Shown here: positions 4,802 to 37,432 of the stretch, piece after piece
How positions within the stretch are numbered: position 1 is the stretch's first letter
Layout: the number at the start of each line of letters is the position of its first letter
NCBI RefSeq assembly: GCF_032922745.1
Contig: NZ_CP136693.1
Span: 2,514,967 to 2,554,966 of the forward strand
DNA: 40,000 nucleotides
Origin: Marinobacter salarius
GTDB taxonomy: Bacteria > Pseudomonadota > Gammaproteobacteria > Pseudomonadales > Oleiphilaceae
Direction of reading: 5' to 3'
Made by a program: the position numbers and the translations under genes
The notes under the pieces: model-generated
The model's database searches: none
Told to the model about the DNA's origin: nothing
What the model saw: only the letters and a program-made list of their open reading frames with translations

Positions 4802-5886
4802 TGGCTGAGTCAACCATGAAGGCGCCGAAAAAACGCATTGATCCTGTCCGGTGGGCGCGGGAGAACCTGTTTTCAAGCTGGCACAACACGATTCTGACCC
4901 TGTTGGTGGGCTACCTGATCGTGACCAGCGTGGGTCCCTTGCTCAATTGGGTATTGCTGGATGCGAACTTCCAGGGCAGTGACCCGAGTGACTGTACCGG
5001 AGCGGGGGCCTGCTGGCTGTTTATCAATCAGCGGCTTAATTTCTTTATCTACGGGTTCTACCCCGAGGAATTCCAGTGGCGCGTGGACATTATGTTCGGC
5101 CTGCTGGCACTGTCTTTCGCGCCTCAGTTCATTGAACGCTTTCCGGGCCGTAAATGGCTGGGGTTGTTCGGACTGACCGGGCTGCCGATTGTCGGCTACT
5201 TCCTGGTTCCGGGTGGCGTATTTGGCCTGGAGGAGGTTCAGAGTTCGAAGTGGGGTGGGCTGATGTTGACGCTGATTCTGGCGTATATCGGCATCATTGC
5301 CTCGCTGCCGATTGGCACCTTGCTGGCACTGGGACGTCGCTCCGAGATGCCGATCATCCGTGGGCTTTGTGTGGTTTTCATCGAAGTGTGGCGAGCAGTT
5401 CCGTTAATCACGGTACTGTTCATGGCCTCGGTGATGCTGCCGTTGTTCCTACCGGAAGGTATGAACTTCGAGAAGCTGGCGCGCGCGCTCATCGGCATCA
5501 CGCTCTGGCAGTCCGCCTATATGGCGGAGGTCATTCGTGGCGGCCTGCAGGCCATTCCCCGTGGACAGTACGAAGCCGCCAGTGCGCTGGGCCTTGGGTA
5601 CTGGAAGAAAACGGGACTGATCATCCTGCCCCAGGCGCTCAAGCTCGTTATTCCTGGCATCGTTAACACGTTTATCTCGTTGTTCAAGGACACAACGCTG
5701 GTGCTGATTATCGGGCTGTTCGATATTCTCGGCACCGTTCAATCGACGGTTACGGACCCCGCCTGGCAGAACGTGGCTGTGGAGGGGTATGTCTTTGTGG
5801 CGTTCTGTTTCTGGGTGTTTTGCTTCGGCATCTCCCGATACAGCCAGAACCTTGAACGCAAACTCGATACCGGTCACAGAACCTGA
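4798..5886 (+). CDS. aapM: Amino-acid ABC transporter permease (AapM/BztC type)
   Basis: 362 aa membrane protein with [23 protein letters not shown]. The start is ATG 4798 or 4801 (ATGATG overlapping the aapQ TGA), which suggests translational coupling. Confidence 0.8.
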
Positions 5887-14609: not shown

Positions 14610-14686
14610 CGGGGTATAGCGCAGTCTGGTAGCGCGCCTGCTTTGGGAGCAGGATGTCGGGAGTTCGAATCTCTCTACCCCGACCA
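14610..14686 (+). tRNA. tRNA-Pro (anticodon TGG)
   Basis: Manual cloverleaf: acceptor CGGGGTA/TACCCCG, D-stem GCGC/GCGC, anticodon stem CCTGC/GCAGG with loop TTTGGGA, T-loop TTCGAAT, encoded CCA. Confidence 0.9.
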
Positions 14687-14736
14687 CTTTCTGGTCAGTC
14701 CAGGATATTGAACAGTCAGGTGGGCGAACGGTTTAT

Positions 14737-14813
14737 GCGCTCGTAGCTCAGCTGGATAGAGCATCGGCCTTCTAAGCCGGTGGTCGCAGGTTCGAGTCCT
14801 GCCGGGCGCGCCA
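14737..14813 (+). tRNA. tRNA-Arg (anticodon TCT)
   Basis: Acceptor GCGCTCG/CGGGCGC, D-arm GCTCAGCTGGATAGAGC, anticodon loop CTTCTAA, T-arm GCAGGTTCGAGTCCTGC, encoded CCA. Confidence 0.9.
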
Positions 14814-14906
14814 TACCGCAGACGGTTTGATCCGTCCCGGAGACACCGAATCAGCAAAGTTTACCTGAAGTGCCTGTTGGGGTCTGCCCGGCGGTAGTCT
14901 GGATGT

Positions 14907-14983
14907 GGTGGACGTAGCTCAGTTGGTAGAGCTCAGGATTGTGACTCCTGCGGTCGAGGGTTCGAACCCCTTCGTCCACCCCA
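14907..14983 (+). tRNA. tRNA-His (anticodon GTG)
   Basis: An extra 5' G(-1) pairs with the C discriminator. Acceptor GTGGACG/CGTCCAC, anticodon stem CAGGA/TCCTG with loop TTGTGAC, encoded CCA. Confidence 0.9.
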
Positions 14984-15038
14984 CTTTCCTGCTTGCAGTG
15001 ATCAATGGCTCTTTTAGGTTAAGAATTCCGATTTTTTT

Positions 15039-15123
15039 GCCTCGGTGGTGGAATTGGTAGACACGATAGGTTTAGGTCCTGTTGCCGCAAGGCGTGGGGG
15101 TTCAAGTCCCTCCCGAGGTACCA
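15039..15123 (+). tRNA. tRNA-Leu (anticodon TAG), long variable arm
   Basis: Acceptor GCCTCGG/CCGAGGT, anticodon stem ATAGG/CCTGT with loop TTTAGGT, a long variable arm, T-loop TTCAAGT, encoded CCA. Confidence 0.9.
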
Positions 15124-24054: not shown

Positions 24055-24056
24055 AC

Positions 24057-24086
24057 AAAAAGGCACCCGTTATCGGGTGCCTTTTT
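24057..24086. terminator. Bidirectional intrinsic terminator after ppiD
   Basis: aaaaa-ggcacccg-ttat-cgggtgcc-ttttt. Confidence 0.75.
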
Positions 24087-24100
24087 GCACTGCACGAGAG

Positions 24101-24130: not shown

Positions 24131-26059
24131 GTGCGCCAGGCATGGCGCGTAGCGCCTTGACGGGCGCTGTTCCGGTACAGGTGGTGCTGGCCGGATGACT
24201 TGGGGGTGCAAGTCCCCTGTGGACCCGGCAAGGGGAACCACTAGCCGGACGGCAAGGGTGTCCATCGTGAGATGGAATCTGAAGGAAGCCGCAGGCAAAG
24301 CACTGGCCTGACGAACAGAAATCGCATATGAGGCGGTCACACCGGGTAAGGCGTCAACTATCGTCAAAGCCCTGTACTTGCACGGAAGGTGTGGACGTAA
24401 ATGCGGCTGGCATAAGTGTGAAGGTCACGCGTCTTACCCTGGGAAGTCTGGTTCTCTGCCGCTGTGCTACTCACTTCGCGAGAGGTGGGGATGGGGAGCC
24501 AGAACTCAGCCGAGGTCATAGTAGGTGCGTTACCGCGTACTGAAGGACCGAACATGGTTGGCCGTTAGTAGACGGTGAGTTCTCGTGATGTGCTTATGAA
24601 GACAGAAGCGACCCGGATGGGTCAGGGCATTCAGGAAGGGGTTGGGCGGAACCCGGCAGGTACTGAGGCCCGTGTCGAGGCAGGCGCGGGGGCTCACCCG
24701 TGGACGAACGCGGAGCCGAACGCGCTGATGGAGCAGGTGCTTGAGCGCCCGAACCTGATGCGTGCGTATCAGCGGGTGGTGTCCAACAAAGGGGCGGCTG
24801 GCGTCGATCAGATGCCGGTAACAGCCCTGAAGGGCCACCTGCAACAGCATTGGCCAACACTGCGCGAGCGGCTGTTGGCCGGAGACTACCATCCTCAACC
24901 GGTACGCCGGGTCAGCATCCCCAAGCCGCAAGGCGGGGAACGGATACTGGGTATTCCGACGGTGCAGGATCGCCTGATCCAGCAAGCACTTCACCAAACA
25001 CTGAGCCCGATGCTGGAGCCGACCTTCTCGGATCACAGCTATGGGTTCCGCCCCGGTCGAAGTGCCCACCAGGCGGTCAAGGCGATGCAGCAACACATCA
25101 ACGACGGCCACCGCTGGGTGGTCGATCTGGATCTGGCCCAGTTCTTTGACCGGGTCAACCACGATGTGCTGATGAGCCTGCTGGCTTGTCGCATAGCCGA
25201 CCGGCGGATACTCACCCTGATCCGGCGTTACCTGCAAGCCGGCATGCTCGAAGGAGGACTGGTCAGCCCGAGACGGGAAGGCACGCCGCAAGGCGGCCCC
25301 CTGTCGCCCTTGCTCTCTAACGTGCTCCTGACCGAACTGGATCGGGAGCTGGAGCGGCGGGGACACCGGTTCTGCCGCTATGCGGACGACTGCAACATTT
25401 ACGTCAGCAGCAAAAGATCCGGCGAACGGGTGATGGCCAGTATTACCCACTTCCTGGAAACGCGCTTGCGCCTGAAGGTGAATACGGTGAAAAGCGCCGT
25501 GGACCGCCCCTGGCGTCGGAGCTTTCTGGGTTACAGCGTGAGCTGGCATAAACGTCAGGTCCGGTTGAGAGTCGCGCCCAAAAGCCTGAAGGCCTTCATG
25601 GCCAAGCTTCGCCCCCTGCTGAAACGGTCACGGGGACAGTCGTTGACGACCACCATCCGGAACCTGAACCCGGTGCTGAGAGGCTGGGCAAATTACTATC
25701 GCCTGACCGCCTCGAAGCGTTCGGTCGAAGCCCTGGATGGCTGGATAAGACGGCGGCTTCGCCTGATCCTGTGGCAGCAGTGGAAGCGGACCCGCACGCG
25801 GGCCCGCAACCTGGTACGGCTAGGCTTGACTGAGATAAGGGCTTGGAGGAGCGCGACCAATGGTCGTGGACCCTGGTGGAACAGTGGCGCGACTCATATG
25901 AACGCGGCCCTGCCTAAGAGGGTATTCGACCGTCTGTCTCTGGTAAGCTTGCTGGATACGATGACTCGGCTTCAGAGCCGACCATGAACCGCCGTGGTAC
26001 GGAACCGTATGCCCGGTGGTGTGAGAGGACGGGGGAGGTAACTCCCCCTCCTACTCGAT
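24131..26059 (+). mobile_element. Group II intron, bacterial class C (IIC)-like, apparently intact (1929 nt)
   Basis: The 5' end is GTGCG at 24131. The RT/maturase ORF lies in domain IV. Domain V is at 25987..26020 (ACCGCCG.../...CGGTGGT lower stem with CGC at the triad position). Domain VI is at 26023..26056, with a GUAA tetraloop and a bulged A at 26053, 7 nt from the proposed ...CGAT 3' end. Non-ORF RNA totals only about 516 nt. The intron sits just after a terminator hairpin. Confidence 0.85.
24575..25987 (+). CDS. Group II intron-encoded reverse transcriptase/maturase, with no endonuclease domain
   Basis: RT motifs are present: RVVSNKGAAGVDQM, RRVSIPKPQGGERILGIPTVQDRLIQQA, SYGFRPGRSAHQA, TPQGGPLSPLLSNV and FCRYADDCNIYV. 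The maturase X region contains LRGWANYYR. The protein ends shortly after X with no HNH domain. The start may be GTG 24575 or ATG 24596. The stop codon overlaps the base of domain V. Confidence 0.9.
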   Translation: MSSRDVLMKTEATRMGQGIQEGVGRNPAGTEARVEAGAGAHPWTNAEPNALMEQVLERPNLMRAYQRVVSNKGAAGVDQMPVTALKGHLQQHWPTLRERLLAGDYHPQPVRRVSIPKPQGGERILGIPTVQDRLIQQALHQTLSPMLEPTFSDHSYGFRPGRSAHQAVKAMQQHINDGHRWVVDLDLAQFFDRVNHDVLMSLLACRIADRRILTLIRRYLQAGMLEGGLVSPRREGTPQGGPLSPLLSNVLLTELDRELERRGHRFCRYADDCNIYVSSKRSGERVMASITHFLETRLRLKVNTVKSAVDRPWRRSFLGYSVSWHKRQVRLRVAPKSLKAFMAKLRPLLKRSRGQSLTTTIRNLNPVLRGWANYYRLTASKRSVEALDGWIRRRLRLILWQQWKRTRTRARNLVRLGLTEIRAWRSATNGRGPWWNSGATHMNAALPKRVFDRLSLVSLLDTMTRLQSRP

Positions 26060-34872: not shown

Positions 34873-35520
34873 ATGAACCAATTGTCTAATTTTCACCGCG
34901 AGCGCGTCCAGGCGGTCTTGAACGCTTCCCCGCTTGTTCCGGTGATTACCATTAACCACCCGGACGAAGCGCTGCCACTTTGCCGCGCCCTGGTTGACGG
35001 TGGCATCCGCGTGCTGGAAATCACCCTGCGTACGCCCCACGGCATGAAAGCCATCGAGCAGGTAAGGAAAGCCATCCCCGAAGCCTGGGTAGGGGCCGGA
35101 ACGGTCACCAGCATTGCCCAATACCGCCAGGTCGAAGCCGCGGGCGCCCAGTTCGTAATCACGCCGGGCGTCACCGAGGCGATTCTGGAGTTCGGTGTTA
35201 CCTCGGAAGCGCCGTTGCTGCCGGGCATTTCAACGATTTCGGAGCTGATGGTTGGCTACAACCTTGGCTACCGTGAATTCAAGTTCTTCCCAGCCGAAGT
35301 CGCCGGCGGTATCCCCGCCCTGAAGGCTTTCTCTGGCCCTTTCCCGGACGTTACCTTCTGCCCGACCGGCGGTATCCGCCGCAACACTGCCAAGGACTAT
35401 CTGGCCCTTAAGAACGTCTCGGCCGTTGGTGGCACCTGGTTGACCCCTGGTGATGCGGTTGCTTCCGGTGATTGGGGGCAGATTTCTGAGATTGTTCGTG
35501 GGAGCCTTGGTGACCTTTGA
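34873..35520 (+). CDS. eda: 2-keto-3-deoxy-6-phosphogluconate (KDPG) aldolase
   Basis: 215 aa. LEITLRTP, GAGTV and FKFFPA (Schiff-base lysine region) are typical of Eda. Confidence 0.9.
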   Translation: MNQLSNFHRERVQAVLNASPLVPVITINHPDEALPLCRALVDGGIRVLEITLRTPHGMKAIEQVRKAIPEAWVGAGTVTSIAQYRQVEAAGAQFVITPGVTEAILEFGVTSEAPLLPGISTISELMVGYNLGYREFKFFPAEVAGGIPALKAFSGPFPDVTFCPTGGIRRNTAKDYLALKNVSAVGGTWLTPGDAVASGDWGQISEIVRGSLGDL

Positions 35521-35565
35521 CCTGTGAGTTATCTGCGGGCTGTAGCCTGAGATATCGGGGTGTTC

Positions 35566-35673
35566 GCGGTTGGTGGCAGGGCCGTTCGGGAAACGCTACG
35601 AGCACATCCATGTGCGCTTGGAATTGGCCATCCTTGGCCAATTACATTCCCGAACGGCCCTGCCACCAACCGC
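35566..35673 (+). repeat. Structured palindromic repeat, copy 1: outer 26-27 bp perfect stem plus a 55-nt conserved core
   Basis: Arms are 35566..35591 gcggttggtggcagggccgttcggga and 35648..35673, its exact reverse complement. The core is at 35594..35648. Confidence 0.75.
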
Positions 35674-35825
35674 TTGTTCCGGTCTCAGAGGTGTCTCCCT
35701 GGCTGCTTGAAGTGCTTTGAGTCAATGTTTTGCGTGAAGAAGAGGGAGGCTAGCTTTGGTCATTCCGGCGAATAACGCGTTGTAAACAAGAGTGTGGTCT
35801 AGCGATATCCGATTGGTCTAAGCAA

Positions 35826-35933
35826 GAGGCTGCGGGGCGGGGCTTCCCAAAATGTAATTGGCCAGGGATGGCCAATTCCAAGCGCACATGGATGTGCTCG
35901 TAGCGGTTTTGGGAAGCCCCGCCCCGCAGCCTC
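35826..35933 (-). repeat. Structured palindromic repeat, copy 2 (inverted relative to copy 1)
   Basis: Arms are 35826..35852 gaggctgcggggcggggcttcccaaaa and 35907..35933, its exact reverse complement. The core at 35851..35905 is the reverse complement of the copy 1 core, identical at 54 of 55 positions. Confidence 0.75.
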
Positions 35934-35983
35934 AAGGCACCAAAACCATCAGGCTACAAAAGACGACACCTCCCAATTCCCGT

Positions 35984-37432
35984 CTAGCGAATATCAGCCC
36001 CAACACGAACAATCTTCATAGTGTTCGTGCCGCCCTGGGCATTCACATAATCGCCCTTGGTAATCACCACCAGGTCACCCTCTTTGACGGCCCCCATCCG
36101 AACCAGTTCAGCCACCGCGCGCGAGTTTGTCTGCTCGGGCGGAATCGTCGCCGAATCAAAAGGCACCGTCTGTACGCCTCGGAACATCGTCACCCGATGC
36201 TGGGTAGAATGATTGCGCGAGAAGGCAAAAATCGGAAGGCTGGATTTGATGCGCGACATCAGCAGGGGAGTGGCACCGGTTTCCGACATGCAGATAATCG
36301 ATGTCACACCGTCCAGGTGATTCGCCGCATACATAGCGGACAGCGCGATCGCCTCATCCACATGCTCCATGCTTTCATGGATGCGGTGCTTGGACTGATG
36401 CATCGACGGATGCTTTTCTGCGCCCATGCAAATTCGCACCATGGCTTCCACCGCTTCCGTGGGGTAGTCGCCGACCGCCGTTTCTGCAGACAGCATGACC
36501 GCGTCGGTGTAATCCATAACCGCGTTCGCCACGTCGGAAACCTCCGCCCGTGTGGGCATCGGGCTCTCGATCATCGATTCCATCATCTGGGTGGCGGTAA
36601 TCACCACTGTGTTCAGGGCGCGGGCGCGATTGATGATGTGCTTCTGAACGCCCACCAACTCGGCGTCGCCAATCTCAACAGCAAGATCACCCCTGGCCAC
36701 CATAACCGCGTCCGACGCATCGATGACCGCATCCAGAGCGGCGTTGTCGTGGGCCAGTTCCGCGCGTTCAATCTTGGCAACCAGGCGTGCTTCCGAGCCG
36801 GCTTCCTTCAGCAGGCGGCGGGCAACATGCATGTCTTCGGCTGTGCGTACAAACGACACTGCGACATAATCGGCACCCAGGCGGGCGGCGGTTTTGATGT
36901 CCTGCTTGTCTTTCTCGGTCAGGGCTTCGGCGGACAGGCCGCCGCCGCGCTTGTTCAGGCCCTTGTTGTTGGACAGGGGGCCGCCGATAAGAACGCGGGA
37001 GGAGATGCTGGTGCCGTCGACGGACTCGACCTCCATCTCGATGCGGCCGTCGTCCAGTACCAGGATGTCGCCTGGTTTGACATCTTCGATCAGCTGCTCG
37101 TAATCAATGCCGACGCGCTCTTCATTGCCGGCTTCCTTATCCATGCTGGCGTCCAGGATAAACTGTTGGCCGGCCTTGAGGGTCACCTTGTTTTCCGCGA
37201 AGCGCGCGATTCGAAGTTTCGGCCCCTGGAGGTCGGCGAGCAGGGCGACAAACCGGCCATTGGTGGCGGCAGATTCCCGCACCCGTCGGGCGCGTTGGAT
37301 ATGGTCCTCTGCGCTGCCATGGGAAAAATTCAATCTCGTAACATCGACACCTGCAGCAATAATGGCCGACAGTGATTCCGGTGAATCGGTGGCGGGGCCG
37401 AGAGTGGCGACGATCTTGGTGCGCCTTAGCAT
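35984..37432 (-). CDS. pykA: Pyruvate kinase
   Basis: 482 aa starting [19 protein letters not shown]..., with [12 protein letters not shown] and other PK motifs. Confidence 0.9.

Follow-up and report, generated by a model that had tools for sequence, protein, structure and literature searches.

The closest described relative of the elements considered here is TwoAYGGAY, an RNA family named by its authors for two AYGGAY loops, whose closing helix, P1, is in their words 'often very large (e.g. 24 bp with only 2 mismatches)' and whose seed alignment holds several copies from Psychromonas ingrahamii (Weinberg et al. 2010, PMC2864571). TwoAYGGAY has been catalogued since 2010, and its function is undemonstrated; the sole proposal is that of Gardner and Eldai, who suggested on motif grounds a small RNA (sRNA) that binds CsrA, acting as a sponge (PMC4333381). 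The consensus obtained for CsrA by systematic evolution of ligands by exponential enrichment (SELEX) is RUACARGGAUGU, in which ACA and GGA are invariant and the GGA lies in a hairpin loop (PMC4347634), and csrA is expressed in Marinobacter (PMC10516948). Here, we analyzed a 40,000-nt stretch of the Marinobacter salarius genome (contig NZ_CP136693.1, positions 2,514,967 to 2,554,966; hereafter, the window), in which the spacer between the convergent genes eda and pykA carries two long palindromic elements. These elements very probably belong, by their sequence and predicted fold, with TwoAYGGAY as a divergent and unannotated subfamily, and the best overall reading might be that of a clamped RNA module with two CsrA-binding sites, to which we give a probability of about one half.

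Each of the two elements spans about 108 nt. In copy 1, two arms of 27 nt (35566–35592, GCGGTTGGTGGCAGGGCCGTTCGGGAA, and 35647–35673) are 100% complementary and enclose 54 nt (35593–35646); in copy 2, the arms at 35826–35852 (GAGGCTGCGGGGCGGGGCTTCCCAAAA) and 35907–35933 are also 27 nt long, fully complementary, and enclose 54 nt (35853–35906). The cores, 35594–35648 and the reverse complement of 35851–35905, match at 54 of 55 positions, and a 47-mer from the core occurs twice in the window, where the shuffle comparison gives an expectation of zero. The original prediction, made from the DNA letters alone, had described the paired elements, the core match, and the self-complementary arms correctly, and its distances to the neighboring stop codons also hold: copy 1 begins 45 nt after the end of the eda open reading frame (ORF) at 35520, and 50 nt separate the end of copy 2 from the pykA stop codon (35984–35986). 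The length difference of 2 bp that it saw between the copies is unreal, the arms being 27 bp in both. It had the outer arms differing at roughly half of their positions, and the 5′ arms are indeed identical at 15 of 27 positions; shuffled arms reach only 8.6 ± 2.1 (p about 0.005), and the arms of the two copies are very different (44% of positions) yet homologous. Folded as RNA, either strand lies far below its shuffles (z from −9 to −12), with −90.9 kcal/mol (z −12.1) for copy 1 on the minus strand and −87.5 kcal/mol (z −9.0) for copy 2 on the plus strand. No U-run or intrinsic terminator follows either copy, and 35300–36200 contains 0 terminator-like sites, in line with the earlier view that these are not plain intrinsic terminators.

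That the palindromes arose by chance or through faulty assembly is already refuted. Not one of 100 shuffles gave even a single core match, and both copies recur in the genomes of isolates from several Marinobacter species. Some element-bearing metagenome contigs are nevertheless chimeric or carry adaptor sequence (L016, L019, L025, L034, and L077). These contigs, for L019 the stretch 92–233, were left out of all counts together with L039 as artefacts, the six showing adaptor ends, a palindrome fold-back, or arms of different sites joined together, which we attribute to misassembly caused by the repeat. The apparent 62-nt arms of L019 were accordingly treated as an assembly fold-back.

At the gathering thresholds of Rfam, nothing was reported at the elements, and the window showed only four tRNAs and a group II intron. 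The match to TwoAYGGAY (RF01731, gathering score 43 bits) was found only when Rfam was used in E-value mode: copy 2 aligned on the plus strand at 35819–35940 (39.2 bits, E 8e-5) and copy 1 on the minus strand at 35559–35680 (33.2 bits, E 0.002), both over the full length of the model (1–168). The alignment places the long outer stem, the junction residues AAUG, CAAG, and CGG, and both hairpins with NGGA loops on the consensus. A copy of the second apex subtype found here, type B, scored 29.8 bits. Because the gathering score is an operational cut-off and not a structural feature, we filed the copies as a divergent subfamily. The second hairpin, H2, has the AYGGAY loop (AUGGAU) in both window copies (CACAUGGAUGUG), and P1 is long and variable, with 27 bp and 0 mismatches in both. 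RF01731 is a member of Rfam clan CL00106, which was confirmed as the clan of CsrB by scanning Escherichia coli csrB. The 'conserved loop with covarying stems' that the original prediction had presented as an unrecognized family is therefore the published signature of TwoAYGGAY, whose authors had already noted the very large P1.

The core was also found in other genomes and metagenomes, with different but complementary arms. When one genome per species was scanned for an exact 21-mer, the type A core, the subtype of the window copies, was confined to Marinobacter, bar one unrelated partial match, and a looser core pattern was present in 66 metagenome contigs and had 0 matches in the viral contigs scanned. 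We built our own covariance model, R1, from 38 distinct copies; it retrieved further partner copies with other apex subtypes and scored the whole elements of the window, comprising 5′ flank, P1, apex, P1′, and 3′ tail, at 131.3 bits (copy 1, 35547–35689, minus strand) and 132.3 bits (copy 2, 35810–35952, plus strand). Altogether, about 90 related copies were identified in Marinobacter genomes and metagenomes, at 14 or more intergenic sites. The type A apex of 54 nt is also present between hisD and hisC, and the type B apex of 57–58 nt is nearly identical at a dozen sites, with its own arms at each.

This collection bears out the earlier argument that arm pairing itself is maintained. P1 pairing reaches 96.6–96.9% in alignments of 38 and 39 sequences, and falls to about 40% when the partner columns are slid as a control; 27 of 28 P1 pairs change on both sides across paralogs and orthologs. 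Compensatory changes also occur in the stems of H1, the first hairpin, and H2 (39-sequence model alignment). At the eda site, the orthologs L006, L011, and L009 carry compensated C>T/G>A arm changes, that is, completed replacements of C-G by U-A. The few P1 cells that are not Watson-Crick pairs are unevenly divided on the strand bearing the GGA loops, with 26 G.U against 4 A.C (naive binomial p 6e-5, for cells that are partly non-independent because some are common to orthologs). This bias tracks the orientation of the apex and not the flanking genes (about 9:0 with the GGA strand as the sense strand, about 15:4 with it as the antisense strand), and deamination of the non-template or leading strand would produce a bias in the opposite direction. 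The same strand carries 2 (type A) to 5 (type B) GGA motifs per apex of 54–58 nt, against 0–1 on the other, and the GGA stays in the loop while the H2 stem varies across apex subtypes (CACAUGGAUGUG, ACCCAGGGAUGGGC, GCCCAUGGAGGGC, and UACAGGGACGUA). The strand bias together with the GGA loops shows that the molecule under selection is the single strand carrying these loops. Most simply, this strand is RNA, opposite in polarity to the cores as the original prediction had drawn them. Its proposal that both mRNAs share the same folded 3′ module thus chose the wrong strand, because the Rfam match, the GGA loops, and the wobble pairs all point to the antisense strand. The orientation bias relative to the upstream gene that it expected is not fixed across sites, either, and flips at orthologous ones.

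These observations also bear on the possibility that the sense mRNAs of eda and pykA use the hairpin (..CAUCCAUG..) as a terminator substitute or as a 3′ exonuclease barrier, for which the repetitive extragenic palindromic (REP) sequence between malE and malF is a comparison case. The copies begin 45–50 nt past the stop codons in a spacer with no other terminator, a position occupied by an ordinary terminator hairpin in species that lack the elements; the polarity directly after a stop codon (0–60 nt) recurs at about 10 of 14 sites, and the structure is very stable on the mRNA-sense strand too. However, the wobble pairs favor the opposite strand by 26:4, and a mere barrier would not call for nucleotide-level conservation of a 54-nt apex whose GGA loops lie on the other strand. 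Among the sites are also several 5′ leaders or divergent promoter regions (lysR/eamA, the M3 peptidase, glcF, and hisC), orientation flips at orthologous sites, and the apparent polarity bias follows for the most part from the divergent arrangement of paired copies. We therefore regard such a role in the sense mRNA as improbable.

We return to the RNA of the GGA strand, whose apex was delineated from the Rfam consensus alignment and the fold. In copy 1, on the minus strand, H1 (35619–35646) has the loop AGGA, with GGA as the complement of 35631–35633, and H2 (35600–35617) has the loop AUGGAU, with GGA as the complement of 35607–35609. In copy 2, on the plus strand, H1 (35853–35880) has the loop GGGA, with GGA at 35866–35868, and the GGA of H2 (35882–35899) lies 24 nt further on at 35890–35892. 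The spacing between the two GGA motifs is 24–25 nt across copies. Mercante et al. reportedly found in 2009 that a CsrA dimer can bridge a range of spacings that includes this one. The H1 sequence is GCCAUGGAUGGC, and the H2 loop ACAUGGAUGU is nearly equal to the CsrA SELEX ligand, with ACA, GGA, and UGU all matched.

The most probable mechanism is the following. The RNA of copy 1 would be made from the minus strand and that of copy 2 from the plus strand, pointing apart toward the 3′ ends of eda and pykA. A 27-bp P1 of free sequence, lengthened by a short outer helix, closes the strongly conserved 54-nt apex of two hairpins, each presenting a GGA in its loop (H1 ..GCCA-NGGA-UGGC.. and H2 CACA-UGGA-UGUG), so that a single dimer of CsrA (RsmA) might bridge the two loops. 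P1 would serve as a clamp that keeps the sites in register and shields the module from exonucleases. With roughly 15 or more copies per Marinobacter genome, the elements might titrate CsrA or place host transcripts under CsrA control. The type B apex, which packs five GGA into 57 nt, resembles an Rsm RNA in miniature. At the DNA level, the copies are also spread and reshaped, through gain or loss, divergent doublets, core inversion, and gene conversion. The family resemblance, the structure, the covariation, the selected strand, and the retention of GGA in the loops are demonstrated by the present data, whereas the production of the RNA and the identity of CsrA as its ligand are what we infer from them, and the narrower proposition that the elements act by binding CsrA is tentative, a little short of even odds.

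Several observations pull in the other direction. We found no sigma-70-like promoter in 35300–36200, no GacA box (TGTAAGN6CTTACA) near the elements, and no −10 motif common to 25 copies. Neither the window nor the 15 related loci scanned gave an RF01731 match at the gathering threshold. The H1 loops of the window copies, CCAAGGAUGG and CCAGGGAUGG, are ARGGAU (AAGGAU and AGGGAU) and not AYGGAY, and the orthologous copies L006, L011, and L013 as well as all type B copies have CCAUGGAUGG, the GGA itself being invariant. Type A apexes contain two GGA only. P1 is almost wholly Watson-Crick (950 Watson-Crick pairs and 26 G.U), which exceeds what an RNA needs, and many sites have the GGA strand in antisense orientation relative to their flanking genes. 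Finally, at the M3-peptidase site the apex is flipped exactly between 28-bp arms within nearly identical flanks (L068 806–919 versus L023 4867–4980 and L017). The two sets of loci consequently differ in the gene toward which the GGA strand is turned, namely that of the hexapeptide transferase or that of the M3 peptidase. The flip is supported by independent assemblies (2 and 3) and goes along with variants of the arms, with some chance of an assembly artefact. As for where transcription might start, divergent promoters in the spacer between the copies were considered and rejected, since no promoter-like sites were found in that spacer, which lacks conservation and shrinks to about 41 nt at glcE/glcF.

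Such rearrangements lead to the view that the element is a selfish or structural DNA repeat akin to REP sequences, bacterial interspersed mosaic elements (BIMEs), or REP doublets forming hairpins (REPINs), which spreads and is remodeled at the DNA level, with the hairpins as protein sites on DNA and any RNA role secondary; the route would perhaps be an HUH-type enzyme acting on a folded single strand, or recombination. The eda–pykA spacer measures 77 nt in M. nauticus, 35 nt in M. salinus, and −8 and 65 nt in two other genomes of the genus, none of which has any trace of the arms there. The empty spacer of M. nauticus (L080 3149–3225) contains an ordinary bidirectional terminator hairpin (CACAAAACCCACC..GGTGGGTTTTGTG), and a terminator of this type is absent from the lineage carrying both elements. 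Since the arms are missing from the empty spacers, the 418-nt composite 35541–35958 is gained or lost as a unit. It is bounded by an exact 10-nt inverted repeat with GTAG inside, formed by TGTAGCCTGA (35541–35550), the 3′ tail of the minus-strand RNA of copy 1, and TCAGGCTACA (35949–35958), the 3′ tail of the plus-strand RNA of copy 2; related AGGCUA tails are present at the flhB, gatB, and M3-peptidase sites. Between the copies, the spacer 35674–35825 is poorly conserved in an alignment of five species and serves as a REP insertion site in other species.

The tight pairs are all divergent on the GGA strand, at six sites (eda/pykA, flhB, thiC, glcE/glcF, gatB, and acyl-CoA dehydrogenase), and the his copies flank hisD in the same arrangement, where the chance probability per site is about one quarter. 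At glcE/glcF the whole element is oppositely oriented in different taxa. At the M. denitrificans pykA site (L006 1011–1153), the apex is a mosaic, with arms and H2 as in the window and a type-B-like H1 (GCGGAGCCATGGATGGCGGAGCC), which suggests gene conversion between paralogs; such conversion might contribute to the uniformity of the apex. The pykA and flhB paralogs are alike in arms and flanks, indicating that the copied unit includes the arms. Type B copies with the flank AGCCTGATGG.. had been considered as orthologs of copy 2 with a swapped core, but Pfam places them downstream of flhB and not of pykA, and they are therefore paralogs. Two other origins were rejected. Neither the landing of a core in a pre-existing terminator palindrome nor the making of arms from target sequence at insertion agrees with empty sites that lack arms and with arms that are homologous between sites (15/27, p 0.005; conserved G-C columns).

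The suggestion in the original prediction of a BIME-like or mobile unit thus gains some support from the empty sites, the doublets, and the inversion. A DNA-level repeat would also be at ease with copies at 14 or more unrelated intergenic sites near housekeeping genes (his, glc, pur, thiC, flhB, and gatB), with the lack of promoters and terminators, and with the wobble bias, because a G.T bias on one strand is also compatible with a folded single DNA strand. Against it, about 14 sites and not hundreds were seen in the 555 kb of selected loci, in which no transposase or REP-associated tyrosine transposase (RAYT) gene adjoins any copy; no target-site duplication was seen at the composite ends in five species, and the viral contigs were free of matches. 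The arms are about 50% diverged and the apex is nearly identical, whereas recent transposition from a master copy would give the reverse; this pattern implies sequence-specific selection, or conversion, acting on the apex at each site. The conserved feature is, moreover, ACA..GGA..UGU in a loop, that is, the CsrA ligand. We consider a repeat of this kind less likely than the RNA module, yet a serious rival to it. A combination of the two, in which a REPIN-like mobile TwoAYGGAY doublet sets ready-made CsrA modules of high affinity beside housekeeping genes and the arms let the apex flip, switching the CsrA-binding strand between sense and antisense, is a long shot. If it were true, genes could be wired into or out of the Csr regulon in a heritable and possibly reversible manner, with the arms kept perfectly Watson-Crick as DNA recombination substrates and the apex conserved for RNA.

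Two other repeats were observed in the vicinity of the elements. A separate and genuine Marinobacter REP/REPIN family (GTAGGTCGGATTAGCGAAGCGTAATCCGAC and its inverted mate) is inserted between the TwoAYGGAY copies in some species and also beside the hisD/hisC copy (L009 7720–7806, L008 2538–2575, and the spacers of L006, L011, and L031). A sequence of about 88 nt with three hairpins (88.5% identical) interrupts the GGA loop of H2 in two unrelated copies, at the M. iranensis pykA site (L009 7911–8000) and at a metagenome gatB site (L031 1163–1249), and occurs nowhere else in the sequence examined; either a nested insertion or an enlargement of the H2 domain could account for it.

The genes at the sites were named with Pfam and NCBIfam, using a codon-usage ORF caller checked by Pfam. 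In the window, eda (KDPG aldolase; 34873–35520, plus strand, PF01081) has its 3′ end toward copy 1, and pykA (pyruvate kinase; 35984–37432, minus strand, PF00224 and PF02887) toward copy 2. Like these two, flhB and gatB have an element at their 3′ ends; other elements lie between hisG and hisD, hisD and hisC, glcE and glcF, acyl-CoA dehydrogenase and a short-chain dehydrogenase/reductase (SDR), purE and purK, and thiC and a NUDIX gene, and yet others in the divergent promoter region of the M3 peptidase and hexapeptide transferase genes and in the divergent region of lysR and eamA. The neighboring genes share no common function. A functional tie to sugar metabolism or to HexR as a general rule was rejected, because copies also flank his, glc, pur, thiC, flhB, and gatB. 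The type A H1 (35853–35880 and 35619–35646) does contain TGTAATT-N14-AATTCCA, resembling two HexR half-sites that have been moved apart; this is probably a coincidence, since type A is also found at hisD/hisC. A hexR-like gene (HTH_6 and SIS domains) heads the Entner-Doudoroff cluster of the window. On the contig of L015, a thiamine pyrophosphate (TPP) riboswitch lies upstream of thiC (5108–5221), and a TwoAYGGAY doublet downstream of the same gene.

Elsewhere in the window, a tRNA cluster, Pro(TGG)-Arg(TCT)-His(GTG)-Leu(TAG), occupies 14610–15123, and csrA is not among the genes near it; the ORFs upstream resemble malate synthase G and folD, as named from their translations alone. Group II intron domains at 24261–24548 (Rfam group-II-D1D4-3, 148 bits; D1D4-1, 65.7 bits) are preceded, about 170 nt upstream, by a perfect 14-bp terminator-like hairpin (24056–24087, CAAAAAGGCACCCG/CGGGTGCCTTTTTG), and a related contig, L003, has an ORF with RVT_1 and GIIM domains. 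The window intron may be of a terminator-targeting kind.

The Marinobacter copies amount to a natural experiment, with many paralogs, unrelated stems, and a nearly invariant apex. They yield a clear signal of the strand under selection and reveal that GGA persists in the loops despite covariation of the stems closing them; they also give evidence of movement, pairing, inversion, and apex exchange among the elements. With the strand signal, the GGA in the loops, and the remodeling of the elements, a marine genus that can be cultured lends itself to a direct test of the CsrA hypothesis. As the Rfam threshold misses a whole subfamily, convergent spacers like that of eda and pykA are currently annotated as empty. 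The elements also sit where related species keep the eda/pykA terminator, which is relevant to models of the expression of the Entner-Doudoroff cluster.

Compared with known systems, the elements differ from intrinsic terminators, despite being GC-rich hairpins just past convergent genes where related species have a terminator, in having no U-run, a stem three times the usual length, and a structured apex of 54 nt. Integron attC sites were rejected as relatives because they are conserved at the outer ends and free in the center, the reverse of the Marinobacter element. Of the two hallmarks of miniature inverted-repeat transposable elements (MITEs), conserved terminal inverted repeats and a target-site duplication, neither was found, since the arms vary and the five species compared had no duplication. 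The likeness to REP, BIME, and REPIN sequences lies in intergenic palindromes, often just past stop codons, that form inverted doublets, here at six tight-pair sites, and are gained or lost between species. REP palindromes, however, have conserved arms and a free loop, and the Marinobacter element has the reverse; its arms differ at about half of their positions between sites, and in place of a general 5′ GTAG head, the GTAG flank TGTAGCCTGA is present at some sites only. Its copy number seems low, and no RAYT is known for it. With CsrB, CsrC, and RsmX/Y/Z (CL00106), the elements share the Rfam clan and GGA motifs that match the CsrA ligand, several of them lying in loops or unpaired regions of one strand, as in Csr/Rsm sRNAs. 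They differ in having 2–5 GGA per unit against 7–22, in the GacA/UvrY box, promoter, and rho-independent terminator that were not found at the window elements, and in forming many dispersed copies with 27-bp stems as opposed to one to three dedicated genes.

The closest likeness is to TwoAYGGAY, with which the Marinobacter elements share two adjacent hairpins with GGA loops, of the AYGGAY type in H2, closed by a very long, sequence-variable, and nearly perfect P1, as well as conserved junction residues, multiple copies per genome in gamma-proteobacteria and a gene association that is not fixed. They differ from it in scores below 43 bits (39.2 and 33.2 in the window and 29.8 for type B), because of which standard annotation misses them, in the ARGGAU loops of H1 in the window, in an H2 stem much shorter than the Rfam consensus, and in the type B apex, to which three further GGA and an internal loop of GGA/GGA are peculiar. 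The published description also makes no mention of divergent doublets, of core inversion, or of presence or absence between species. The family is known; the evidence for the strand, the obligatory divergent doublets, the inversion and conversion, and the loops close to the CsrA ligand open this long-listed orphan motif to experiment.

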